64,000 nt of DNA from NCBI GenBank assembly GCA_046483985.1, contig JAWOCD010000005.1:30862-94861 (forward strand), read 5' to 3'. Below, piece by piece: positions 2,918 through 28,021 of this stretch. Position numbers and translations under genes: made by a program. Under the pieces are notes generated by a model. It ran no database searches. It worked only from the letters and a program-made list of their open reading frames with translations, and was not told the origin of the DNA. Numbering within the stretch: the first letter of the stretch is position 1; each line of letters starts with the position of its first letter. The DNA comes from Promethearchaeia archaeon (GTDB lineage: Archaea > Asgardarchaeota > Lokiarchaeia > Sigyniarchaeales > SOKP01).

Positions 2918-3805
2918 TTGAACAGTCAAGAAGATTCAGACGAAAATCAAGATGCTGAGGAAATAGATAAGGACGAATATGATGAAGACGAGCAAGTTGA
3001 GGAGGATTACGAAGAAAATGGAGAATACGACGAAACTCAAGACGATGCCCACGATGAGGATGAAGAGGAGTACGAAGATGTTGACGATGAGGACGATAAT
3101 CTAAGAGATATCGTTGTTCCGGGAGAGACGCTTACAGAGGACCTTGACACTTACAAACCAGGTAGAGGCACCATAATTAATAAAACAGAGAATAAGATTA
3201 TTTCTCTTTATATTGGGCTTAAAAATATCAAAAATAACTACATTAATGTCATCCCCTTACGAGGAATATACACGCCGAAAGTTGGAGATAAAGTAATTGC
3301 GATAGTGGTTGATAAGAACCCCGTGAAATATAAGTGTGACATTAATGCGAAATATAAAGCTCAATTGAGACCTAAAAATACCGTGAAACAGGGTAAATTT
3401 CGAAGAAAAAAACGGAAAAGAATGGATACTTCCAAATACGATCTTGGCGATGTATTAGTTGCGAAGGTTATTTCAGCTAATAGATTGAATAAACCGAGGT
3501 TAACAACTGTTGGAAAATACTTGGGTAAAAAATCAGGAGGAGTTGTTATCAACATTGATCCTCCGAAAATACCCCGAGTGATTGGCCGCAACGGTTCGAT
3601 GATAAAAATGTTAAAGCGAATGACAAATTCAAATATTTTTGTAACTCAAAATGGTCGAATCTGGCTTAAAGGGGATAGCCCCGCAAATGAACGTTTGCTA
3701 ATTGATGCAATAAATAAAATTCAAAGGGAAGCGCACACCAGTGGTTTAACTGATCGTGTGCAAGCCTATATAGAAAGCGAAAAACAAAAAAGAGGGATTG
3801 ATTAA
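2918..3805 (+). CDS. rrp4: Exosome complex RNA-binding subunit Rrp4 with an approximately 60 aa D/E-rich N-terminal extension
   Basis: The N-terminal domain (IVVPGETL), S1 domain (GDKVIAIVVD) and KH domain (RVIGRNGSMIKMLK) are present. The only in-frame starts after the upstream TGA (2909) are ATA (2912) and TTG (2918). Confidence 0.85.
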   Translation: MNSQEDSDENQDAEEIDKDEYDEDEQVEEDYEENGEYDETQDDAHDEDEEEYEDVDDEDDNLRDIVVPGETLTEDLDTYKPGRGTIINKTENKIISLYIGLKNIKNNYINVIPLRGIYTPKVGDKVIAIVVDKNPVKYKCDINAKYKAQLRPKNTVKQGKFRRKKRKRMDTSKYDLGDVLVAKVISANRLNKPRLTTVGKYLGKKSGGVVINIDPPKIPRVIGRNGSMIKMLKRMTNSNIFVTQNGRIWLKGDSPANERLLIDAINKIQREAHTSGLTDRVQAYIESEKQKRGID

Positions 3806-3808
3806 ACA

Positions 3809-4591
3809 ATGACGTTATTAGTTAAGGATGAATATCCAGAAAAGTTATTTCAAGAAGATGGAAAAAGACTTGATGGTCGAGATAAAAAACAGCTGCGACC
3901 GATTAGTTTTGATGTTGGAGTAATTCCAAATGCTGATGGTAGCGCATATTTAGAATGGGGAAACAATAAAATCTTTGCAGCAGTGTACGGACCTAAAGAG
4001 GTTCACCCACGTCATATAGCTAAATCTGATCGTGGAATATTACGTATATTTTACCGAATGGCGACATTTTCTGTGTTTGACAGAAAGCGTCCTGCTCCTG
4101 GTCGAAGGGAGAAGGAAATTTCAATGGTTGTTTCTGATTGTTTAGAACCTGTACTATTTCTTGAATTATATCCTCAAACATGTTTTGAGATATACATAGA
4201 AGTAATTGATGCCGATGGAGGAACTCGGTGTGCAAGCACTACTGTTGCGGCTTTAGCGTTAGCCGATGCAGGAGTTCCTATGAAAAGTTTGGTAACCGCT
4301 CTTGCAGTTGGAAAAATTGATGGTGAATTGGTTGTAGATCTCTCGGGAATCGAAGATAAGGCAGGAGAAGCGGATTTGCCGGTTGCAGTTACATGGTTTA
4401 ACGAAGAACTTTCTTTGTTGCAATTTGATGGGGAAATATCTATGGATGAACTTAACACATTATTGGACTATGCTGAAGATGCGTTACAAAAAGTATACGA
4501 AAAACAAAAAGAGGCATTGAAATCGAAATATATTGATATTCAATTAGAAACTAAAAAAGAACTTGAAGAAACTCAAGGAGGAGAAGAATAA
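3809..4591 (+). CDS. rrp41: Exosome complex exonuclease Rrp41 (RNase PH fold)
   Basis: It contains RLDGRDKKQLRPISFDVGVIPNADGSAYLEWGNNKIFAAVYGP. It starts 4 nt after the rrp4 stop. Confidence 0.9.
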   Translation: MTLLVKDEYPEKLFQEDGKRLDGRDKKQLRPISFDVGVIPNADGSAYLEWGNNKIFAAVYGPKEVHPRHIAKSDRGILRIFYRMATFSVFDRKRPAPGRREKEISMVVSDCLEPVLFLELYPQTCFEIYIEVIDADGGTRCASTTVAALALADAGVPMKSLVTALAVGKIDGELVVDLSGIEDKAGEADLPVAVTWFNEELSLLQFDGEISMDELNTLLDYAEDALQKVYEKQKEALKSKYIDIQLETKKELEETQGGEE

Positions 4592-4593
4592 AA

Positions 4594-5424
4594 ATGATGG
4601 ACGTTAAACGCGTAATCTCGACTATTGAGAAAAATCATATCAAAAAGAACCTTAAGGACGGAGTGCGAATTGATGAGAGAGGTCTTTGGGAATTTAGAGA
4701 GATTGAAGTGAATACGGACGTAGTCGCTGCAGCAGAAGGATCCTCCGATGTAAAAATCGGAGATACACGGATTATGACTGGTCTTAAATATGATATTGGG
4801 ACTCCATATCCCGACTTACCCGATGAAGGAGTATGTACCGTAATGGCAGAATTACTTCCATTAGCTTCACCCTTATTTGAACGAGGTCCTCCAGATGAGC
4901 AATCCATTGAATTGGCAAGGGTAGTGGATCGGGGTATAAGACATGCCGACTGTATTCAAACCAAAAATCTATGTGTCAAGGAAGAGGAAGCTGTATATAT
5001 CTTATTTCTTGATATGTATGTCATCAATTATGCTGGTAATTTGATTGATTGTGGAGGATTAGGGGGACTCATGGCCCTAATTTCAGCACAACTTCCCGAA
5101 GGAAAGTGGAATGAAGAAACAGAAGAGCCCGAATGGACTGGAAATTATATCAAACCGGAAAATCTGGTGAATGAACTTCCAATAGCCATTACTTTTGGGA
5201 AGATCGAGGATATGTTATTCGTGGATCCGTCTCTTCCCGAAGAGTTAGTGGCCGATGGAACTGTTACCTTCTCTTGCACCGAGGAAAACATAACTTCTAT
5301 CCAGAAATCAGGTTCAGCAACCTTTACTTTTGACGAGATAAGAGAACTGGGAAAAAAATCACTGGAAATTTCGAAAGATCTCAGAAATCAATTAGATCCT
5401 TGGCAATACAAATCAGAAATCTAA
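4594..5424 (+). CDS. rrp42: Exosome complex subunit Rrp42 (RNase PH-like)
   Basis: It contains RIDERGLWEFREIEVNTDVVAAAEGSSDVKIGDTRIMTG. It starts 3 nt after the rrp41 stop. Confidence 0.9.
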   Translation: MMDVKRVISTIEKNHIKKNLKDGVRIDERGLWEFREIEVNTDVVAAAEGSSDVKIGDTRIMTGLKYDIGTPYPDLPDEGVCTVMAELLPLASPLFERGPPDEQSIELARVVDRGIRHADCIQTKNLCVKEEEAVYILFLDMYVINYAGNLIDCGGLGGLMALISAQLPEGKWNEETEEPEWTGNYIKPENLVNELPIAITFGKIEDMLFVDPSLPEELVADGTVTFSCTEENITSIQKSGSATFTFDEIRELGKKSLEISKDLRNQLDPWQYKSEI

Positions 5425-20788: not shown

Positions 20789-20949
20789 ATTTAACTCAAC
20801 TCTTTTGTTATCAATTAATTATATTTATGGAAATAATTTAATTATATTTATTTAAAACAACTCAAAGCGACCAAGAAATTTATATTTTAAAAATGATATG
20901 GATTTAATCTTTTCTATATTACCATCCACTAAAATATTTCATGTGGTGA

Positions 20950-21264
20950 AAAGAGATACATAGTAAAATTCTTCTGGCAGTAGATGACTCTGAAGATGCA
21001 CTAGGGGTCGTAAAAAGAGCTATTGAGATAAAAAAAAAAAATTAATAATCCCTTCTGTTGACTATTGGAAAAAGCTAATAAACTTTTTAAAAAAGAGCAA
21101 TTGGAGGTATAAACCCGGCTTGTAGAAGAAATTAAATAAGAAGATTTTGATTTGGCGGTCTTAGGGACAGAGGAAGATATTCGAATGTAAAACAAATTGT
21201 TTTAGGTACTATGACAACAAATGTGTTGAACATAATTTCCTGTGATGTCCTTGTGGTTCGCTAA
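20950..21264 (+). pseudogene. Decayed universal stress protein (UspA family) gene
   Basis: USP-like fragments occur in three different frames. They are KILLAVDDSEDALGVVKRAIEI, DFDLAVLGTEEDI and VLGTMTTNVLNIISCDVLVVR*. There is no start codon and several stops, and an A13 run at 21039-21051 lies at the first frame break. Confidence 0.6.
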
Positions 21265-21328
21265 ACAGTTTCTTTAATACGTTCTCAAATCAAAAGGAAG
21301 ATTATTTTTTTAAACTTGGTTAATAGTT

Positions 21329-22003
21329 CTAATAGTTCTTTAATTGGGAATAGAGAAAAATAAGTATTCCAATAATCATTATAACGGGCGGAATTTCCAA
21401 CGGAAAAGCCGGAAAGGAGGAAACAAATAATTCCGTATCCATCATGTTACCGATTGTTATAAAAATCAATCCGACTAATAACCAAGCTGCATTCTTTCGA
21501 ACAGCACCTGTCCCCTTAATTATAATATATATGTAAAGAAAAAATACTACACCGATAGAAACTGGCAAGAGGGTATACATCATGGTAAGCGCGATATATC
21601 TGTCCGCTCCACCTATTAAAGAAACCAGAGCTATTCCAAATGTAATGAGAGTCACAATTAAAAAGATCTTTTTTGTTTTGGTAATCATGTAGGTCTCTAA
21701 TATATATAACCAGAAGATTATCCCAATTAAGGAACTGATATAGCCCACAGTGGTGTAAAAATCATAATACTCCGAGTTGCGAACCCCAAAGATGAAGAAA
21801 ATCCGAGTTAATCCAAAAAATAAAGTAAAAACCGCATAACCAAAAAAAACCATTTTACTGCTTTTCAAATCGATTTCTCTTCCCTTCATTAAAAACAAGA
21901 AGAACGCAAGAAATAAAAGCCCAATTGATATAATCCAGAGAATAAGAGAAGGACCTTCGTAATATTCGATTCCTTGAAATGAGTCTGGTAATTCTAATAT
22001 CAT
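21329..22003 (-). CDS. Seven-helix integral membrane protein, function unknown
   Basis: It has 7 predicted hydrophobic helices in 224 aa. There is no retinal-binding Lys in the last helix. Confidence 0.5.
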   Translation of the reverse strand: MILELPDSFQGIEYYEGPSLILWIISIGLLFLAFFLFLMKGREIDLKSSKMVFFGYAVFTLFFGLTRIFFIFGVRNSEYYDFYTTVGYISSLIGIIFWLYILETYMITKTKKIFLIVTLITFGIALVSLIGGADRYIALTMMYTLLPVSIGVVFFLYIYIIIKGTGAVRKNAAWLLVGLIFITIGNMMDTELFVSSFPAFPLEIPPVIMIIGILIFLYSQLKNY

Positions 22004-22058: not shown

Positions 22059-22481
22059 TTATTTAATGATTTCAGTTATGAAACACGTCTCGATTATTTT
22101 GACACCTTCAATAGGAGATATCTTTGATTCTATTAGCGGATTAAAGTCTTGTATATCCGAAATTTCTACAATGGCAAAGATCCCACAATCCCCCGATAAT
22201 CTCCAAATATCCGTGATCTCCTCAACAGATCGTAATTTTTTTAAGATCCTTTTGATTTCTTTATAATTCGGTTCAATTTTAATGGTTGCCTGGATTTTGG
22301 GCTCTGAATCAATTTCATATTCGATTGTAAATTTTTCAATAACTCCCTCTTCAACTAAGTTTTTAACTCTCCTTCTAACCGTTGCATTTGTCCTATCTAC
22401 AACTTTCGCAATATCACTATAGGACTGTCTTCCATCTCGTTCTAATTCTTCTAAAATTTTTTTATCGATAATATCTACCAT
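22059..22481 (-). CDS. Lrp/AsnC family transcriptional regulator
   Basis: The HTH is DKKILEELERDGRQSYSDIAKVVDRTNATVRRRVKNLVEEGVI, followed by a RAM/AsnC_trans_reg C-terminal half. Confidence 0.85.
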   Translation of the reverse strand: MVDIIDKKILEELERDGRQSYSDIAKVVDRTNATVRRRVKNLVEEGVIEKFTIEYEIDSEPKIQATIKIEPNYKEIKRILKKLRSVEEITDIWRLSGDCGIFAIVEISDIQDFNPLIESKISPIEGVKIIETCFITEIIK

Positions 22482-22812
22482 TTTTTTCTCATCCTATAAT
22501 ACATTATTCTAATATGATCACTTATTTATGAAAAAAGTGAGATTTCTTATATAATTTGTTTAAAATTTTAAATCTATATTTAGGAACTGGATAGTTGTGT
22601 TTTTCATTTCTTAAATAATAATTAAATATTTTCCCTTAGTATATAGAAAAATTCCTTAAATAGGTTGGTTTTAATGTGTTTTCCTTGAATTCTCTCACTC
22701 CACTCATACTTGTGTTAACTTCAACGTTTTTAATAACTTTACTTTCTGTATCTTAGTAGGAAATAAGAGAAAGGAACGAGATTTTTTAAGAAAATTTGTA
22801 TTATAATACAAG

Positions 22813-24129
22813 ATGGAATTAAGAATTTCGTTAAACAAGTGGATATTAAGAGCATTTATCTTATCCATTTTGATCCGTTTATTTTTGGCTTCCTTGAATA
22901 TCTTCCCATTGATGGATGATATAATCAACCCTTTTTTAGAACTTGAACTGATTCAAAATCTTGAACTTTTTTCTGATTATCATTTTTATTATAAGGAATT
23001 CGCGAAAGAATTTGTGTCCGGCAATTGGATACCGTATTTGGAAGATGCGAAAATTCACTCTATTGAGTATCCCTTGCTTTATCCTCCCTTCTTTTTGTAC
23101 GCTATTAGTTTTCCGGCGTTAATTCATCCAGATTTAACGTTTGTTCTCCTGTTATTCGCGGATTGTTTACTTCCCTTAATGGTCTATAAATTTCTTCGGG
23201 AATTTCAAACAAAAAAGGTTGCAGAATGGGGGTTGTTGGCAACTGCATACTCTCCCTTTCTCCTAATTTATACGGGCGCTTTATTTTTGAATACGTCTTT
23301 AGTTAACTTATTTTTTATAAGTACTCTCTATTATGTTGCGAAGCGGAAATATAATTTAGCTACGCTTCTTCTGGGAATCTCATTTTTATTTAAACAGATT
23401 ATTCTTTTTTTTATAATCCCTCTCGTGCTATATATGACTCTTGATTCTACACAGAGTGAGAATGGAAAAAAAGATTCATTTAAATTGGCACTTAAATACT
23501 TTGGAATTTTATTTCTTGTGATTTTTCTTGGATCTTTACCGTGGATTATAATTAGTCCGTTTAATTATATCATTTCTCTTTCCGTTGGAGAACTACCTAA
23601 TTTCTTTCCACAATTTCAAAGCTTCAAAAGTTGGTGGGTCAGGCCGATCAAATGGTACGATTTCTTGATTCTTAAGGATGCTCCCTATTGGGTTATTTAT
23701 ATCGCTGGATTTCTAAACTTTTCTTTATTTGGTATATACCTTGTGCAGATACTTGCCATGTATCTTCTTTATAAATGGCATCACACCGAAGAATTAGATT
23801 TTAAACACTTTCTCAACTTATTACTCATTATTGCATTTTTATCGCATCTTTGGATGTCTCGTGGAGTATTTAAATATTATTTTACATTTTTTATCCCTAT
23901 TGTAGTACTATGGTTAGGATATTATCAAACGGTTCAAATATCGCAACGAAAATCAAAACGGAACAGACTTTTATTTTTAATGATAGGGATTTCATTATTT
24001 CTCATACTTCTTAATAGATATATCTATTTACTGATTGTTTGGCTCTTATTTTTTGTTTTTTCTTATAAAATTATAATGAAGGTTAGGATTGATGGAATTC
24101 CCGAAGAATTCCACCAAGGTGGCTTTTGA
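22813..24129 (+). CDS. Polytopic membrane protein, GT-C-like glycosyltransferase (DUF2029/PMT_2-like) candidate
   Basis: It has about 12 TM helices and an early loop with YPLLYPPFFLY. The architecture resembles polyprenol-phosphate-sugar-dependent glycosyltransferases. Family assignment is tentative. Confidence 0.4.
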   Translation: MELRISLNKWILRAFILSILIRLFLASLNIFPLMDDIINPFLELELIQNLELFSDYHFYYKEFAKEFVSGNWIPYLEDAKIHSIEYPLLYPPFFLYAISFPALIHPDLTFVLLLFADCLLPLMVYKFLREFQTKKVAEWGLLATAYSPFLLIYTGALFLNTSLVNLFFISTLYYVAKRKYNLATLLLGISFLFKQIILFFIIPLVLYMTLDSTQSENGKKDSFKLALKYFGILFLVIFLGSLPWIIISPFNYIISLSVGELPNFFPQFQSFKSWWVRPIKWYDFLILKDAPYWVIYIAGFLNFSLFGIYLVQILAMYLLYKWHHTEELDFKHFLNLLLIIAFLSHLWMSRGVFKYYFTFFIPIVVLWLGYYQTVQISQRKSKRNRLLFLMIGISLFLILLNRYIYLLIVWLLFFVFSYKIIMKVRIDGIPEEFHQGGF

Positions 24130-24302
24130 GGGGGAATGTGGTTATGATTTCCATGTTGATTCCCAAAAACAGCTTTAATGAATACATTTGAGTGAAATCG
24201 CCAGTTAAATGATTCGTCTTAACCCCTCGATTTTTGAATGCCCTCCTTTTTTACATGACCACCAATTATATAAATTTGTCGCTACTTAAATATTTTGAAA
24301 GA

Positions 24303-24329
24303 TTAACAAGCTTAACAAGCTTAACAATT
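24303..24329. repeat. Tandem 9-mer TTAACAAGC x2 plus TTAACAATT
   Basis: Read directly from the sequence. It lies about 25 nt downstream of a TATA-like ATTATATAAA (about 24266-24275). Confidence 0.7.
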
Positions 24330-24368
24330 CTAAACTTAATTTGTTTTTTAGCATCCAGATTAACTAAA

Positions 24369-24550
24369 CACGCCTAAAGGCGTGAGATTCATATTCTCTG
24401 ATACATAATCTTTACATTAGACAAAATATAGGTTGGCTCTCCTACCTTAAATTAAGGTCCTGCTTCTTTTTATGATTACGAAGTAGATTTAGTGATTTAA
24501 ACGCAAAATTCATCTCCATCCTAAAGGATGGAGTTTTCTTTTGCTTTTTT
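24369..24550 (+). ncRNA. Candidate structured RNA or 5' leader: three hairpins ending in a hairpin plus oligo-U tract
   Basis: The hairpins are CACGCC-TAAA-GGCGTG (24369-24384), ACCTTAA-A-TTAAGGT (24444-24458) and CTCCATCC-TAAA-GGATGGAG (24514-24533). The last is followed by TTTTCTTTTGCTTTTTT. No known RNA family is recognised. Confidence 0.25.
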
Positions 24551-24641
24551 GATAAAAATTGCTAAGTACAAAAAATTAAATTTCATAAATGTGTTATTAA
24601 GTTAGGTATTGGATATTTTAGTTTTGTGGTAGGATAAGAAT

Positions 24642-25682
24642 ATGAGATTATACTGGACCGTGCTTAAAGATGTTGATGCAATTGAATATGAATTTGCACC
24701 ACTCCATTTCAATCGAAGGGCCCAAATTTTAGAGAGCGTAAAAGCCCCTAAAAATGATAAATGCAACGAAGAGTGGATGAAAGAATCGATTATTATTGAG
24801 CAGAGCGCGAAATTGTTACCACTTGTAAGGAGATTTCCTGGTCGTATGGTAAAAGCGGTTAAAATCGAATTTAATGGAAAAGAGTTATTAATTTTTGATG
24901 CTGATTATTCCTTTTTACAGAATGGCTGGTATGGGATGACCATTCTAAAGACGCGTAAAGAAGATCTACCTGTGAATCAAGAATTACAGTTGAGTAGCGA
25001 AGTTTATGAGATCGTGAATGATTATCTCTTGGGAAAAATTACTGATCTGAAATCTGGGATACAAAAGGAAATTGAAAAATATAAAAATTCCCAAGTAGTC
25101 TCTTGCTTTAATAAGGCAAGGAAAAAGAAAGGAGAGAAATATTTTTTAGAGGATATTATTGATCCATTGGATACTTCCTCGTCAAAGTGGGACATTTTCC
25201 TTATCCACAAAACGGGAGAGCCCGTAACAGACATTTATCGAGTATTTAAAAGCTATTCAAATGGCTCAACCAATTTTATCAAATTAGACATGGAGCGAAA
25301 ATATGATTTACCAGGATATGAGAAGGAAATGGAACTTACCAAAATTCATAACCTAAATTGTATGGCTCTTAGTGCAGCATATACACTTTGCGGGAAAGTG
25401 GGCAATTTAATGGGGTATAAACGAGCGAAACTCCGTCATACTACGACTAAACTTCATAAAAACCTAGGAGTTGGATTCACTTTCTTGGAGCATGCTGAGA
25501 TAAAGGGAAAGGAAATAATTTTTTGTTTAGATGTTAAAAATAAACTATCTGCTGGAGATAAACATATCAATAAATTGTTTGGGAACGAACGGAAAACACT
25601 TAAAAAGATAAAAAAAAACATTGTTAAGTCGGGTTCTTTAAAAGCATCAAAAATACGTAAGAGCATTAGAAAAGAGATATAA
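24642..25682 (+). CDS. Orphan protein, 346 aa, with Lys-rich C-terminal tail
   Basis: It is a long ORF in an AT-rich background. I recognise no motif. The C-terminal KKIKKNIVKSGSLKASKIRKSIRKEI suggests nucleic-acid or membrane affinity. Confidence 0.55.
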   Translation: MRLYWTVLKDVDAIEYEFAPLHFNRRAQILESVKAPKNDKCNEEWMKESIIIEQSAKLLPLVRRFPGRMVKAVKIEFNGKELLIFDADYSFLQNGWYGMTILKTRKEDLPVNQELQLSSEVYEIVNDYLLGKITDLKSGIQKEIEKYKNSQVVSCFNKARKKKGEKYFLEDIIDPLDTSSSKWDIFLIHKTGEPVTDIYRVFKSYSNGSTNFIKLDMERKYDLPGYEKEMELTKIHNLNCMALSAAYTLCGKVGNLMGYKRAKLRHTTTKLHKNLGVGFTFLEHAEIKGKEIIFCLDVKNKLSAGDKHINKLFGNERKTLKKIKKNIVKSGSLKASKIRKSIRKEI

Positions 25683-25963
25683 TTAAAATAAAGAAATACT
25701 TTTAAGATTCTATTAAGGAAAAAATAGAAGTTTTTAAAAGAGTCTGAATGCTTCTTTCATTTTCTCTATTCGTTTCCTTTATTTCAAATTCGATTTCCAA
25801 ACCCCTTCTCTTTCCTCTTTATTTTCCAATTCCAAGATTCCATTTGGTACTTTAACTTTTTCTTTCCGATTTTCGAATGCAAATTTTCTAAGACTGAAAA
25901 TTTATATGTAGCTTTTTATTTAAAATAACCATTGTAATCATAGATAAAGAAGGTGTAAAACTG

Positions 25964-28021
25964 ATGGGAAATAAATGGAATAAATACTTACGATTGAAAC
26001 GCTATGAAAATCTCCCGAAGATGGTTTTTGATGTCATTCAGAGACATTCGGAAAAACTTGCGATGCGTTGGTTTGAGGACGGCGGAGATTCCATACAAAA
26101 ATTAACATATGCCCAGTTAGGCAAAAAAATCATCGATGTTTTTTATGGATTAAAGCAATTAAATTATGAAAAGGGGGATCATATAGCGATTTGTTCGGAA
26201 ACTTCTCAAATGTGGGCGTTTGCAGATTTAGGAGTTCAATGTCTGGGCGGCGTGACCGTTGCAATATATCCCTCTCTAACCCCAAAAGAGATTCTCTATA
26301 TTTTGAAGGATTCAGAAACAAAATGTCTCTTTGTTGATTCACAAGAGAACTTGGAGAAGGTGGTTTCCATTTGGAAAGAGATTATAAATTTAAAAGACGT
26401 TATTCTAATGGAAGATATTGATACTGCAACTAAAAAGGAGGTTATTTCTGATTATTCTTCTAATGAGATTATCCCTCTGGATGGTTCATCGAAACTTGAT
26501 CATATTTATAGTTGGGAAGAGTTTTTACGACCCGCACTAGTGAAGAGCATTGAAAGAAAAACTGAATTAGTGGAACAATCAATGGATGCAATTAAAGAAG
26601 AGGATTTGGCAAGCCTAATCTATACTTCGGGTACGACCGGCATCCCAAAAGGAGTTATGCTTACCCATAAAAACTTTCTCAGCGATATCGTTGCCTCCTC
26701 TGCAATTGCTAGTACATTGGAAAAGGACGAAAAACCATGGGCACAAGACACTATTACATATTTACCGTATGCTCATTCGTTTGGAAGGACCGTGGAAGAG
26801 TATAGCATGATCTATAATGGTTCTTGTATCAATTATGTTGGTGGACGTTCCCAAGAGCTATTACAGAAAGCGTTTGAAGAATTCCAACCAACTATTATGA
26901 TCGGAGTACCTTATGTGTTTCAAAAGCTCTATGAAACCATTATGCAAACAGTAGATGAGATGTCTGAGTACGTACAGAATATATTTCATAAAGCAGTGAA
27001 GGCGGGAAAGGAATATTATACGAATAAAATCGAAGGCAAGAAAAATTCATTTGGATTACGTATTAAATATTGGATCCTAAAGAAATTAGTTCTTGGGCAA
27101 ATTCAAAAAAAGTTAGGAGGAAGATTGAAAATTATGCTCTCTGGTTCGGCTGCCATATCCCCCTCTTTGATGCTTTTCTTCTTATCGTGCGGATTTAATA
27201 TGTTAGAAGGGTATGGTCTTACAGAGTCTGCGCCAGTCACTCATGTGCTACGAAATGAAGAGAACTCAGACTTTCGTCCCAATTTCAGTAAAAAAATCCC
27301 CTTATATGAGAAATTAGGGTCTATCGGTCCACCGGTCGAGATTCCAAACAATCCCTATGAAAATGTTCAGCAGAAGCTAACTGAAGAAGGAGAATTACTG
27401 ATAAAAGGACCGATGGTTATGAAAGGATACTGGAAAAAACCAAAACTTACAGCAAATGTAGTAGACGAAGATGGTTGGCTCCATACTGGCGATTTAGCGG
27501 AGATAGATAATGACGGATATGTAAAGATAAAAGGTCGTTTGAAGGCTATTGTGAAATTATCTACGGGCAAAATGGTTAGCCCCGCCGCAGTGGAAGGGAT
27601 GATTGTCCCGTATTCTGAAATAGTTGCTCAAATCATCCTTGTGGGCTCAGAAAAAAAGTATCTCACAGCGATAGTAGTTCCTTACCAAGAGCCGCTAAAA
27701 AACTATGCGGAAGAGCATGACATTTCCTATGATACATGGGAAGATATTATCCGCACTCCTGAAATACTACAATTAATAAAAAAAGATATAGAAGAATATA
27801 CTGAGGATGTGTCGCATTATTCCGTCCCAAAGAAATTCGCAATAAGCAGTCAACCTTTTGGAAAAGGAGATGGATATTTAACTCCGACCTTGAAGTTTAA
27901 GCGAAATAAGATTTACGAAGATTTTCAAGACGTGATTGACAAACTCTACGAAATTGATGGGGAATTCTATATAATTGAAGAACGGATGACAGATTTCTAC
28001 GATCAGAGCCTACTTACTTAA
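25964..28021 (+). CDS. Long-chain fatty acid--CoA ligase (AMP-forming)
   Basis: The AMP-binding motifs YTSGTTGIPKGV, GYGLTE and LHTGDLAE are present in 685 aa. Confidence 0.85.
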   Translation: MGNKWNKYLRLKRYENLPKMVFDVIQRHSEKLAMRWFEDGGDSIQKLTYAQLGKKIIDVFYGLKQLNYEKGDHIAICSETSQMWAFADLGVQCLGGVTVAIYPSLTPKEILYILKDSETKCLFVDSQENLEKVVSIWKEIINLKDVILMEDIDTATKKEVISDYSSNEIIPLDGSSKLDHIYSWEEFLRPALVKSIERKTELVEQSMDAIKEEDLASLIYTSGTTGIPKGVMLTHKNFLSDIVASSAIASTLEKDEKPWAQDTITYLPYAHSFGRTVEEYSMIYNGSCINYVGGRSQELLQKAFEEFQPTIMIGVPYVFQKLYETIMQTVDEMSEYVQNIFHKAVKAGKEYYTNKIEGKKNSFGLRIKYWILKKLVLGQIQKKLGGRLKIMLSGSAAISPSLMLFFLSCGFNMLEGYGLTESAPVTHVLRNEENSDFRPNFSKKIPLYEKLGSIGPPVEIPNNPYENVQQKLTEEGELLIKGPMVMKGYWKKPKLTANVVDEDGWLHTGDLAEIDNDGYVKIKGRLKAIVKLSTGKMVSPAAVEGMIVPYSEIVAQIILVGSEKKYLTAIVVPYQEPLKNYAEEHDISYDTWEDIIRTPEILQLIKKDIEEYTEDVSHYSVPKKFAISSQPFGKGDGYLTPTLKFKRNKIYEDFQDVIDKLYEIDGEFYIIEERMTDFYDQSLLT

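Follow-up and report, generated by a model that had tools for sequence, protein, structure and literature searches.

A constrained gene of a small unnamed archaeal family at a locus of gene decay and conserved leader DNA in a Promethearchaeia genome

In a 64-kb stretch of DNA from a Promethearchaeia (Asgard) metagenome-assembled genome (MAG; contig JAWOCD010000005.1; hereafter the window, i.e., the whole stretch that was analysed), a 346-amino-acid (aa) open reading frame (ORF) stands on the forward strand at 24642-25682, between a gap of 512 nucleotides (nt) at 24130-24641 and another of 281 nt at 25683-25963. Our analyses suggest that this ORF is an ordinary chromosomal gene of a small and unnamed archaeal family, vertically inherited within one narrow clade of Promethearchaeia, and that the gaps on both sides owe their size to the local history of the locus and not to the biology of the gene; we give this explanation, taken as a whole, a probability of roughly 0.6. 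The locus would then be mostly explained as a conserved hypothetical gene, with gene loss and regulatory DNA behind the large gaps on its flanks, and the mobile or RNA-linked island proposed in the initial annotation of this DNA is not supported. The anatomy described there was correct (a glycosyltransferase-like gene, about 510 nt, the 346-aa ORF, about 280 nt and an acyl-CoA ligase gene), and the largest ORF inside the 512-nt gap is at most 47 aa long.

That the ORF is a real and strongly constrained gene is shown by its substitution rates. Against its closest ortholog (P0002, 84% identity), the ratio of nonsynonymous to synonymous substitution rates (dN/dS) is 0.045, with synonymous sites saturated (dS about 1.9), and a database protein that is 100% identical over the full length of the ORF is annotated as hypothetical protein. 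Synteny was the initial annotation's own way of refuting its island, and both related lineages at hand carry the ORF with unchanged gene order, one represented by five assemblies (L001-L005) and the other by L049-L051. The shared order runs from an AsnC regulator, through the place of a glycosyltransferase family 39 (GT39) gene, to the ORF, and from there to the acyl-CoA ligase gene, an FGGY kinase, a gene of ~215 aa, a DUF87 ATPase, a small gene, CDC48 and FEN1. What varies among the three genomes is the set of neighbour genes, namely the GT39 gene, a 240-aa gene and a 159-aa gene; the ORF is constant.

The suggestion that the ORF could be mobile-derived was not borne out either. There is no tRNA in the 64-kb window, no integrase or transposase among the flanking genes scanned against Pfam, and no convincing flanking repeat, terminal inverted repeat or target-site duplication around the unit, where only weak repeats at chance level were found. 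Base composition is normal (GC 0.31-0.36 across the ORF vs 0.34 in the window), and the genes around the locus are housekeeping genes (POR, PFK, acyl-CoA dehydrogenase, ZPR1). No family match was obtained in plasmids and phages (tblastn) or in IMG/VR, no credible one in PHROGs and PADLOC (single-member matches only, E >= 0.009), and the structural model has no match in BFVD at E <= 0.001. The genes, relic and promoter-proximal DNA that make up the locus are as follows.

22813..24129, forward strand: upstream neighbour, a GT39/PMT_2-like polytopic membrane protein of 438 aa (from the ORF map and homologs).
24642..25682, forward strand: the ORF, a predicted soluble two-domain alpha/beta protein of 346 aa in an unnamed archaeal family (from dN/dS, the family alignment and the AlphaFold2 model).
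25741..25874, reverse strand: frameshifted relic of a gene for a 159-aa acidic protein (from tblastn with the L049 protein, six-frame translation and nucleotide alignment).
25897..25963 (~67 nt), forward strand: conserved promoter-proximal DNA of the acyl-CoA ligase gene (the blastn block shared with L001 begins at 25897, ahead of the start codon at 25964).
25964..28021, forward strand: downstream neighbour, an AMP-binding acyl-CoA ligase of 685 aa (PF00501, E 2.4e-71, also PF23562; syntenic in L001-L005 and L049).

The label of the acyl-CoA ligase is upheld by its Pfam match. That of a membrane glycosyltransferase-like protein upstream is reasonable: the 438-aa protein itself has no Pfam match, and it belongs to an Asgard-wide family of which several members carry PF13231 (PMT_2) or the name glycosyltransferase family 39.

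The downstream gap had been taken as non-coding, and it holds a pseudogene relic. L049 has a 159-aa gene here, encoded on the minus strand and flanked by the ORF and the ligase gene. When its protein was searched against the window (tblastn), the similarity fell exactly in the downstream gap, on the strand used in L049, where aa 81-104 match 25874-25803 (54%) and aa 106-125 match 25800-25741 (65%) in two frames, with a combined E of 5e-4. Six-frame translation of the gap yields '..KVKVPNGILELE..' and '..LEIEFEIKETN..' with stops between them, and a 120-nt nucleotide alignment with the L049 gene also supports a relic. The downstream gap is hence a frameshifted relic, the decayed remnant of the 159-aa gene. 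In L001, no trace of that gene is left.

A comparable history is seen upstream. The GT39/PMT_2-like gene is intact in the window and in L049, with 62% identity between the 438-aa protein and the 426-aa PMT_2 gene product of L049, and in the five assemblies L001-L005 it is an 81-codon relic (L001 1501-1746) made of the start, a middle piece and the end of the gene. Taken by itself, this shows that sister Asgard genomes differ in the presence or absence of a glycosyltransferase-like gene. L049 has in addition a 240-aa membrane-protein gene between the GT39 gene and the ORF, which is missing from the window and from L001, so that ~890 nt of L049 stand against 27 nt in the window. The 240-aa protein (L049 5236-5958) is weakly like a 224-aa membrane protein encoded ~3 kb upstream in all three genomes (window 21329-22003, reverse strand; tblastn E 0.013-0.24), and judging from this similarity it may be a diverged local paralog. 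Taken together, three adjacent genes are found in three states (intact, relic and gone), which makes the locus a clear case of ongoing gene decay in Asgard MAGs.

What remains of the upstream region would consist, from left to right, of a block with terminator-like palindromes, a promoter- or operator-like block, a fast-evolving segment and the proximal promoter of the ORF. Since synonymous sites are saturated, neutral DNA should not align between the three genomes, and three blocks of the leader are nonetheless conserved in all three lineages.

24090..24127, forward strand: block 1, conserved non-coding and terminator-like (palindromes GGAATTC..GAATTCC and CCACCAAGGTGG, then a T-run; nearly invariant in three lineages).
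24240..24327, forward strand: block 2, conserved non-coding, a candidate distal promoter or operator (78% identity to L001, also kept in L049).
24328..24572, forward strand: lineage-variable segment (from alignments; ~250 nt in the window, ~125 nt in L049, 31 nt in L001).
24472..24557, forward strand: portion of this variable segment with a match to the right-hand hairpin of a repeat of DPANN genomes (covariance model R1, 29.2 bits, E 1.3e-4).
24573..24641, forward strand: block 3, conserved, putative proximal promoter and short 5' untranslated region of the ORF (the best-conserved non-coding stretch, in all three lineages).

In the window, the last ~13 codons of the GT39 reading frame extend into block 1, and in L049 the block sits ~60 nt downstream of the 240-aa gene, outside any gene; from its palindromes and T-run we infer a terminator-like element. 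Its pattern has no matches in Joint Genome Institute (JGI) metagenomes. A small minus-strand ORF of 34 aa (24083-24187) was rejected, block 1 being read in another frame in L001. Block 2 is built of GCCCTCC followed by T6 (24240-24252), GACCACCAA (24257-24265), the A/T boxes TTATATAAAT (24266-24275) and TTAAATATTTT (24286-24296), and a tandem 9-mer repeat, TTAACAAGC, present 2.8 times (24303-24327). It is a candidate distal promoter or operator. It is non-coding: where a short stretch is in frame in both the window and L001, each of the seven codons that differ (7/7) is a non-synonymous change, and the indel lengths are not divisible by 3. A 26-aa leader ORF (24209-24289) was rejected on the same counts, as its indels break the frame; nor does block 2 have a consensus RNA structure. 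The repeat units of block 2 read TTAACAAAC in both complete units of L001 (~1893-1913) and in L049. This G/A difference is common to both units, which suggests either homogenisation of the repeat or a constrained paired binding site. Block 3 comprises an A/T box, AAATTAAATTTCATAAAT, ~60 nt upstream of the ATG, an invariant TTAGGTA.TGGATATTTTAG and an AGGA at 24631-24634 that precedes the start codon (ATG, 24642) by 7 nt, and both position and motifs argue for the ORF's own promoter and ribosome-binding site.

The segment between blocks 2 and 3 behaves quite differently, being unique within the window and variable in length and sequence between lineages. It contains two perfect hairpins: hairpin A (CACGCC-TAAA-GGCGTG, 24369-24384), and hairpin B (CTCCATCC-TAAA-GGATGGAG, 24514-24533), with an 8-bp stem and a 4-nt loop, an outer stem GCAAAA/TTTTGC (24503-24544) and a T-rich tail reaching 24550. 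The segment folds better than its shuffles (z = -3.3), and the long leader pointed out in the initial annotation does include structured hairpins. At the place of hairpin B, L049 shows a degenerate hairpin only and L001 none. A window-specific 33-mer of the segment is absent from JGI metagenomes, and the window has no Rfam match at gathering thresholds; over 22400-26100, four matches only were obtained (E 4.9-9.9, far below gathering scores; Rfam 15). A C/D-box or H/ACA small RNA was rejected, as the sole C/D-box model match reaches 17.9 bits for a gathering score of 85. The idea of a miniature inverted-repeat transposable element (MITE) inserted relative to L001 is weakened by the intermediate 125-nt segment of L049, which has its degenerate hairpin at the same place, and by the lack of terminal inverted repeats and target-site duplications; on these alignments a deletion in the L001 leader is the more likely event.

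Both block 1 (CCACCAAGGTGG and T4-6) and hairpin B (8-bp GC-rich stem and TTTTCTTTTGCTTTTTT) fit a scan for terminator-like patterns, and each lies downstream of a gene or of a promoter-like block, much like termination signals that combine a hairpin with an oligo-T stretch. The hairpin and T-run of the fast-evolving segment would probably halt upstream transcription. The main requirement of archaeal termination is the oligo-T, and such a role alone does not predict a hairpin conserved to the base.

The family to which the protein belongs is tiny. An exhaustive HMMER scan of 1.84 billion cluster representatives recovered 17 members, i.e., the ORF and 16 others (representatives at 50% identity, E <= 0.001), and a profile search of a word-indexed database added almost no further members; the ORF is accordingly not a strict orphan, as it had been called. 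Its Asgard members are restricted to three closely related lineages, 81-84% identical to each other and at most 41% identical to any other member. Beyond this clade, names are available for three members only, from one Nanoarchaeota MAG and two unclassified archaeal MAGs. In agreement with the earlier remark that no motif could be recognised, the ORF has no Pfam domain (E <= 0.1), no NCBIfam domain and no match among PDB sequences, against which the family profile also gives none at E <= 10. The alignment nonetheless displays a series of motifs (FPGR, GWYG, P..E..LS, GE.Y.LE, KWDFF, G.P.T.I.RY, LDM, H.LNC, LRH, G.GFTF, LDVKNK and LFGNER). The strongly basic tail is real, with a net charge of +13 over the last 40 residues of the ORF product, and it occurs only in the Asgard clade; in other members the value is -3 to +6, and by sequence the tail is a lineage-specific feature and not a family trait. 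The family is rare and patchy, and the early opinion was right in that the gene is not recognisable as core metabolism.

Members of the family are found in chromosomal housekeeping contexts with no shared neighbour, and conserved operon partners were rejected, as the genes beside distant homologs are unrelated to each other. In three distant lineages the family gene lies on the opposite strand at the junction of RpoD with L18e-L13-S9 (L006 8638-11038; L010 6888-8756; L053 914-3398), a placement which may reflect ancestral synteny or give a functional hint. It is worth adding that the L18e-L13-S9 genes belong to a conserved ribosomal/RNA-polymerase cluster. The homolog in 'archaeon CG07_land_8_20_14_0_80_38_8' (L010/L011 8001-9093, forward strand) has an in-frame TAA at codon 252, where its relatives have a Tyr; the ~110 codons after the TAA are still conserved in frame, LDVKNK included, and the shortened form of 251 aa is seen in many samples, with at least 24 contigs carrying it. 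Either read-through of the stop or a nonsense mutation of recent date could account for it.

The 20-mer of hairpin B led to a repeat that is apparently undescribed. Among the GTDB representative genomes, a set that does not include the MAG of the window, this 20-mer was matched exactly 38 times, in 37 stretches. Most of these come from MAGs of Woesearchaeota, Nanoarchaeota and Pacearchaeota, including at least 13 contigs of one Woesearchaeota bin, 7 of a Nanoarchaeia bin and 5 of a Nanoarchaeota bin; many copies lie at contig ends, which fits a repeat that breaks assemblies. Woesearchaeota binchicken_co38_1125, Nanoarchaeia SMAG_U8045 and Nanoarchaeota C20_maxbin.123 are examples of MAGs with the repeat. 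In DPANN genomes it forms the invariant apex (CTCCATCC-TAAA-GGATGGAG) of a ~123-nt element with two long hairpins whose lower stems covary. In the stems, 91% of cells are paired vs 37-48% when partners are slid, and ten pairs show compensatory changes, a number reached by none of 500 shuffles. The element is intergenic and occurs in both orientations (loci L012-L048, e.g., L036:2368-2490:+, L029:7450-7572:- and L033:2767-2889:+). It has no Rfam family, and neither the element nor the 20-mer has IMG/VR matches. An IS200/IS605 or TnpB omega-RNA origin was rejected, given that no ORF recurs beside the DPANN copies as judged from ORF size and position only. The segment of the window recalls REP/BIME-, Correia- or MITE-like repeats in that hairpin B matches the invariant apex of a multi-copy intergenic element with covarying stems; it differs in that the window has one partial copy, the right-hand hairpin, with no terminal inverted repeats, target duplications or cognate transposase.

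How firmly the Asgard hairpin can be tied to this repeat is another matter. Model R1 gives a single match in the window, to the right-hand hairpin only, with a score inflated by the fact that the 20-mer used as bait came from the window, and similarity beyond the 20-mer is modest (14-nt flanks, p ~0.01-0.02; best left arm 10/14). Perfect 8-bp hairpins represent a small sequence space, so some of the scattered bacterial matches probably arise by chance; those of Poribacteria and Flagellimonas are heterogeneous and probably include chance terminator hairpins. On sequence grounds, homology of hairpin B with the DPANN repeat is probable but unproven, which would make it one related hairpin in an Asgard leader.

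It is tempting to ask whether the ancestor of the Promethearchaeia clade acquired the ORF itself horizontally from a DPANN archaeon; hairpin B would then be what is left of a DPANN-type repeat that came in together with the ORF or shortly afterwards. Such a transfer is compatible with our preferred explanation for all later events, and it would suit the confinement of Asgard members to three close lineages, all others being at most 41% identical, the Nanoarchaeota MAG and two unclassified archaeal MAGs as the other named members, and the RpoD junction shared by three distant lineages, which suggests long residence there. The identity of hairpin B with the apex of the Woesearchaeota, Nanoarchaeota and Pacearchaeota repeat, together with some flank similarity, goes in the same direction. 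Yet no R1 match at E <= 1 occurs near family members outside the window and no family member in the fetched hairpin loci, so that a physical link between hairpin and protein family was rejected in both directions. In addition, the hairpin is degenerate in L049 and missing in L001, and a chance or convergent match of a perfect 8-bp/4-nt hairpin is not negligible. The lack of a compositional anomaly, which would speak against a transfer, is uninformative since the donors' GC is similar, and as most family members are taxonomically unlabelled, their tree can be neither rooted nor annotated with taxa. All in all, we consider this transfer rather unlikely, and it is a little less likely still that both ORF and leader hairpin are DPANN-derived, a gene of a DPANN-centred family having been acquired together with a copy of the ~123-nt repeat. 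Were this joint origin true, the locus would physically record a passage of DNA from DPANN archaea to an Asgard genome, and would point to a new class of archaeal structured repeat, with an apex bound by a conserved factor, that has proliferated in Woesearchaeota, Nanoarchaeota and Pacearchaeota genomes.

AlphaFold2 with the family alignment gives a confident full-length model of the protein (mean predicted local distance difference test, pLDDT, 87.9; predicted template modelling score, pTM, 0.85). In it, helices connect two beta-beta-beta-alpha-beta-beta-beta-alpha units, and two further helices stand at the C-terminus; modelled alone, the C-terminal half reaches a pLDDT of 92.3. An internal duplication was rejected (hhalign probability 0.2%), with no detectable sequence similarity between the halves. 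Searched with Foldseek against the PDB, the full-length model has only weak matches to PAS, heme-PAS sensor and longin-type domains, and the best matches of the C-domain model are MglB (3t12_B, 1j3w) and dynein LC7 (7kzm_I), with probabilities of 0.99-1.0 (0.91-1.0 when 9y6s_6A is included). In the model, residues ~166-346 form an alpha/beta/alpha sandwich in which the order of elements (helix, beta-beta, long helix, beta-beta-beta, helix) agrees with that of the Roadblock/LC7 family (MglB, dynein light chain LC7/DYNLRB, LAMTOR; PF03259). Unlike these proteins, the ORF product has an extra strand, two extra C-terminal helices and a fusion to a second, different alpha/beta domain.

A second resemblance is to longin and multi-longin regulators such as Mon1-Ccz1 and Fuzzy-Inturned/CPLANE (PMC3747258), with which the ORF product shares two tandem beta(2-3)-alpha-beta(3)-alpha units; by DSSP, both halves read beta-beta-beta-alpha-beta-beta-beta-alpha(-alpha) vs beta-beta-alpha-beta-beta-beta-alpha-alpha in longin. 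The full-length and C-domain models weakly match 7q3e_B, 8jbe_C and 9rs9_A, with E values of 0.02-0.4 and template modelling (TM) scores of 0.15-0.29. Those regulators have three domains and the ORF product two, and the named members of its family outside the Asgard clade come from the Nanoarchaeota MAG and the two unclassified archaeal MAGs, not from broader Asgard phyla. At best, then, the model suggests a very distant roadblock/longin-like fold in the C-terminal half, and not membership of either family. Domains of the roadblock and longin types work as dimeric platforms, in most cases for the regulation or recruitment of small GTPases (PMC3747258, PMC10933270). Solely by analogy with them, our best guess for the protein is a protein-protein interaction platform or regulatory subunit, a function to which we attach low confidence, and its two tandem domains could form a built-in pseudo-dimer platform.

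Several observations weigh against our explanation or against this view of the protein. Blocks 1 and 2 are conserved very far from any start codon, which is not really accounted for, and simple local decay does not account for the exact match between hairpin B and the DPANN repeat. The C-domain resembles MglB and LC7 only weakly (E 7e-3 to 5e-2, TM 0.29-0.50, root-mean-square deviation about 5.5-8.1 A over ~114 columns); for true roadblock proteins of Asgard archaea, superposition on MglB/LAMTOR2 gives 1.5-1.6 A (PMC10933270). None of the 17 members has a Robl_LC7 (PF03259) or longin Pfam match, even at E <= 1. The protein has no GTPase domain, and neither the window within ~10 kb of the ORF nor any of eight other family loci has an MglA/Ras-like GTPase gene, the only GTPase near a family member being a housekeeping OLA1/YchF-type gene in L009. 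This last absence is weak evidence because the small GTPase genes of MK-D1 do not, as a rule, share operons with those of roadblock, longin or TRAPPC3 proteins (PMC10933270). Finally, the invariant charged or polar residues (E170, K182, W183, D184, R200, H236, C240, D-x-K-N and the E of GNER) are many, and they could as well belong to an enzyme or to a protein that binds a ligand.

The latter possibility deserves consideration on its own, namely that the protein is an enzyme or small-molecule sensor and not a scaffold, its invariant residues forming an active or ligand site in a PAS/roadblock-like pocket. Such a site could be drawn from the invariant or near-invariant positions E114, E170, K182-W183-D184, R200, H236, C240, D-V-K-N and G-N-E-R, it would agree with the low dN/dS of 0.045, and the weak matches of the full-length model to PAS and heme-PAS sensor domains are of the kind it would predict. 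Against it, there is no structural or sequence match to any enzyme family and no conserved metabolic neighbour, and a PD-(D/E)XK nuclease reading of GFTF-x-[DE] ... LDVKNK was rejected, as no nuclease appears in the top 50 Foldseek matches; we thus hold an enzyme or sensor to be unlikely.

Very improbable is the accessory, mobile-derived island whose protein would bind a small structured RNA made from the leader (~24300-24550), for although the leader fold (z = -3.3), its terminal hairpin and T-run, the conserved TATA-like block just upstream, the basic tail (net +13) and the rarity of the family could be quoted in its favour, the reading is already largely refuted by synteny in all relatives, the candidate RNA is conserved neither in length (250, ~125 and 31 nt) nor in sequence and has no Rfam family, the tail is confined to the clade, homolog loci have no comparable leader element, and the transposase, integrase, repeat, viral, plasmid and defence signatures expected of an island are missing. 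A protein of RNA-binding or mobile-element type is likewise not likely.

What is new at this locus may lie elsewhere, in an unnamed two-domain family and in the possible link of the hairpin to an undescribed DPANN repeat. The family is tiny and absent from Pfam, with a confident two-domain model whose C-terminal half would lie on the outermost margin of the roadblock/longin superfold; folds of this class are central to GTPase regulation and to the debates on Asgard and eukaryote cell biology.

A few observations concern the flanks and the gaps of the window. In L001, the acyl-CoA ligase gene (3227-5283) is broken into ORFs of 387 aa and 316 aa, and it is intact with 685 aa in two other assemblies of that lineage (L002 3341-5398), so that either a frameshift or an assembly error is involved. 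As for the spacers that had been called exceptional, the term suits the 512-nt gap, second of 65 in a greedy ORF map of the window (median gap 77 nt), and does not suit the 281-nt gap, one among 12 gaps longer than 250 nt in the same map. A whole-window scan found nothing at Rfam gathering thresholds in the window's largest gap (540 nt, 20789-21328); this gap is very AT-rich (GC ~0.23) and lies between the acyl-CoA dehydrogenase gene and the gene of the 224-aa membrane protein.

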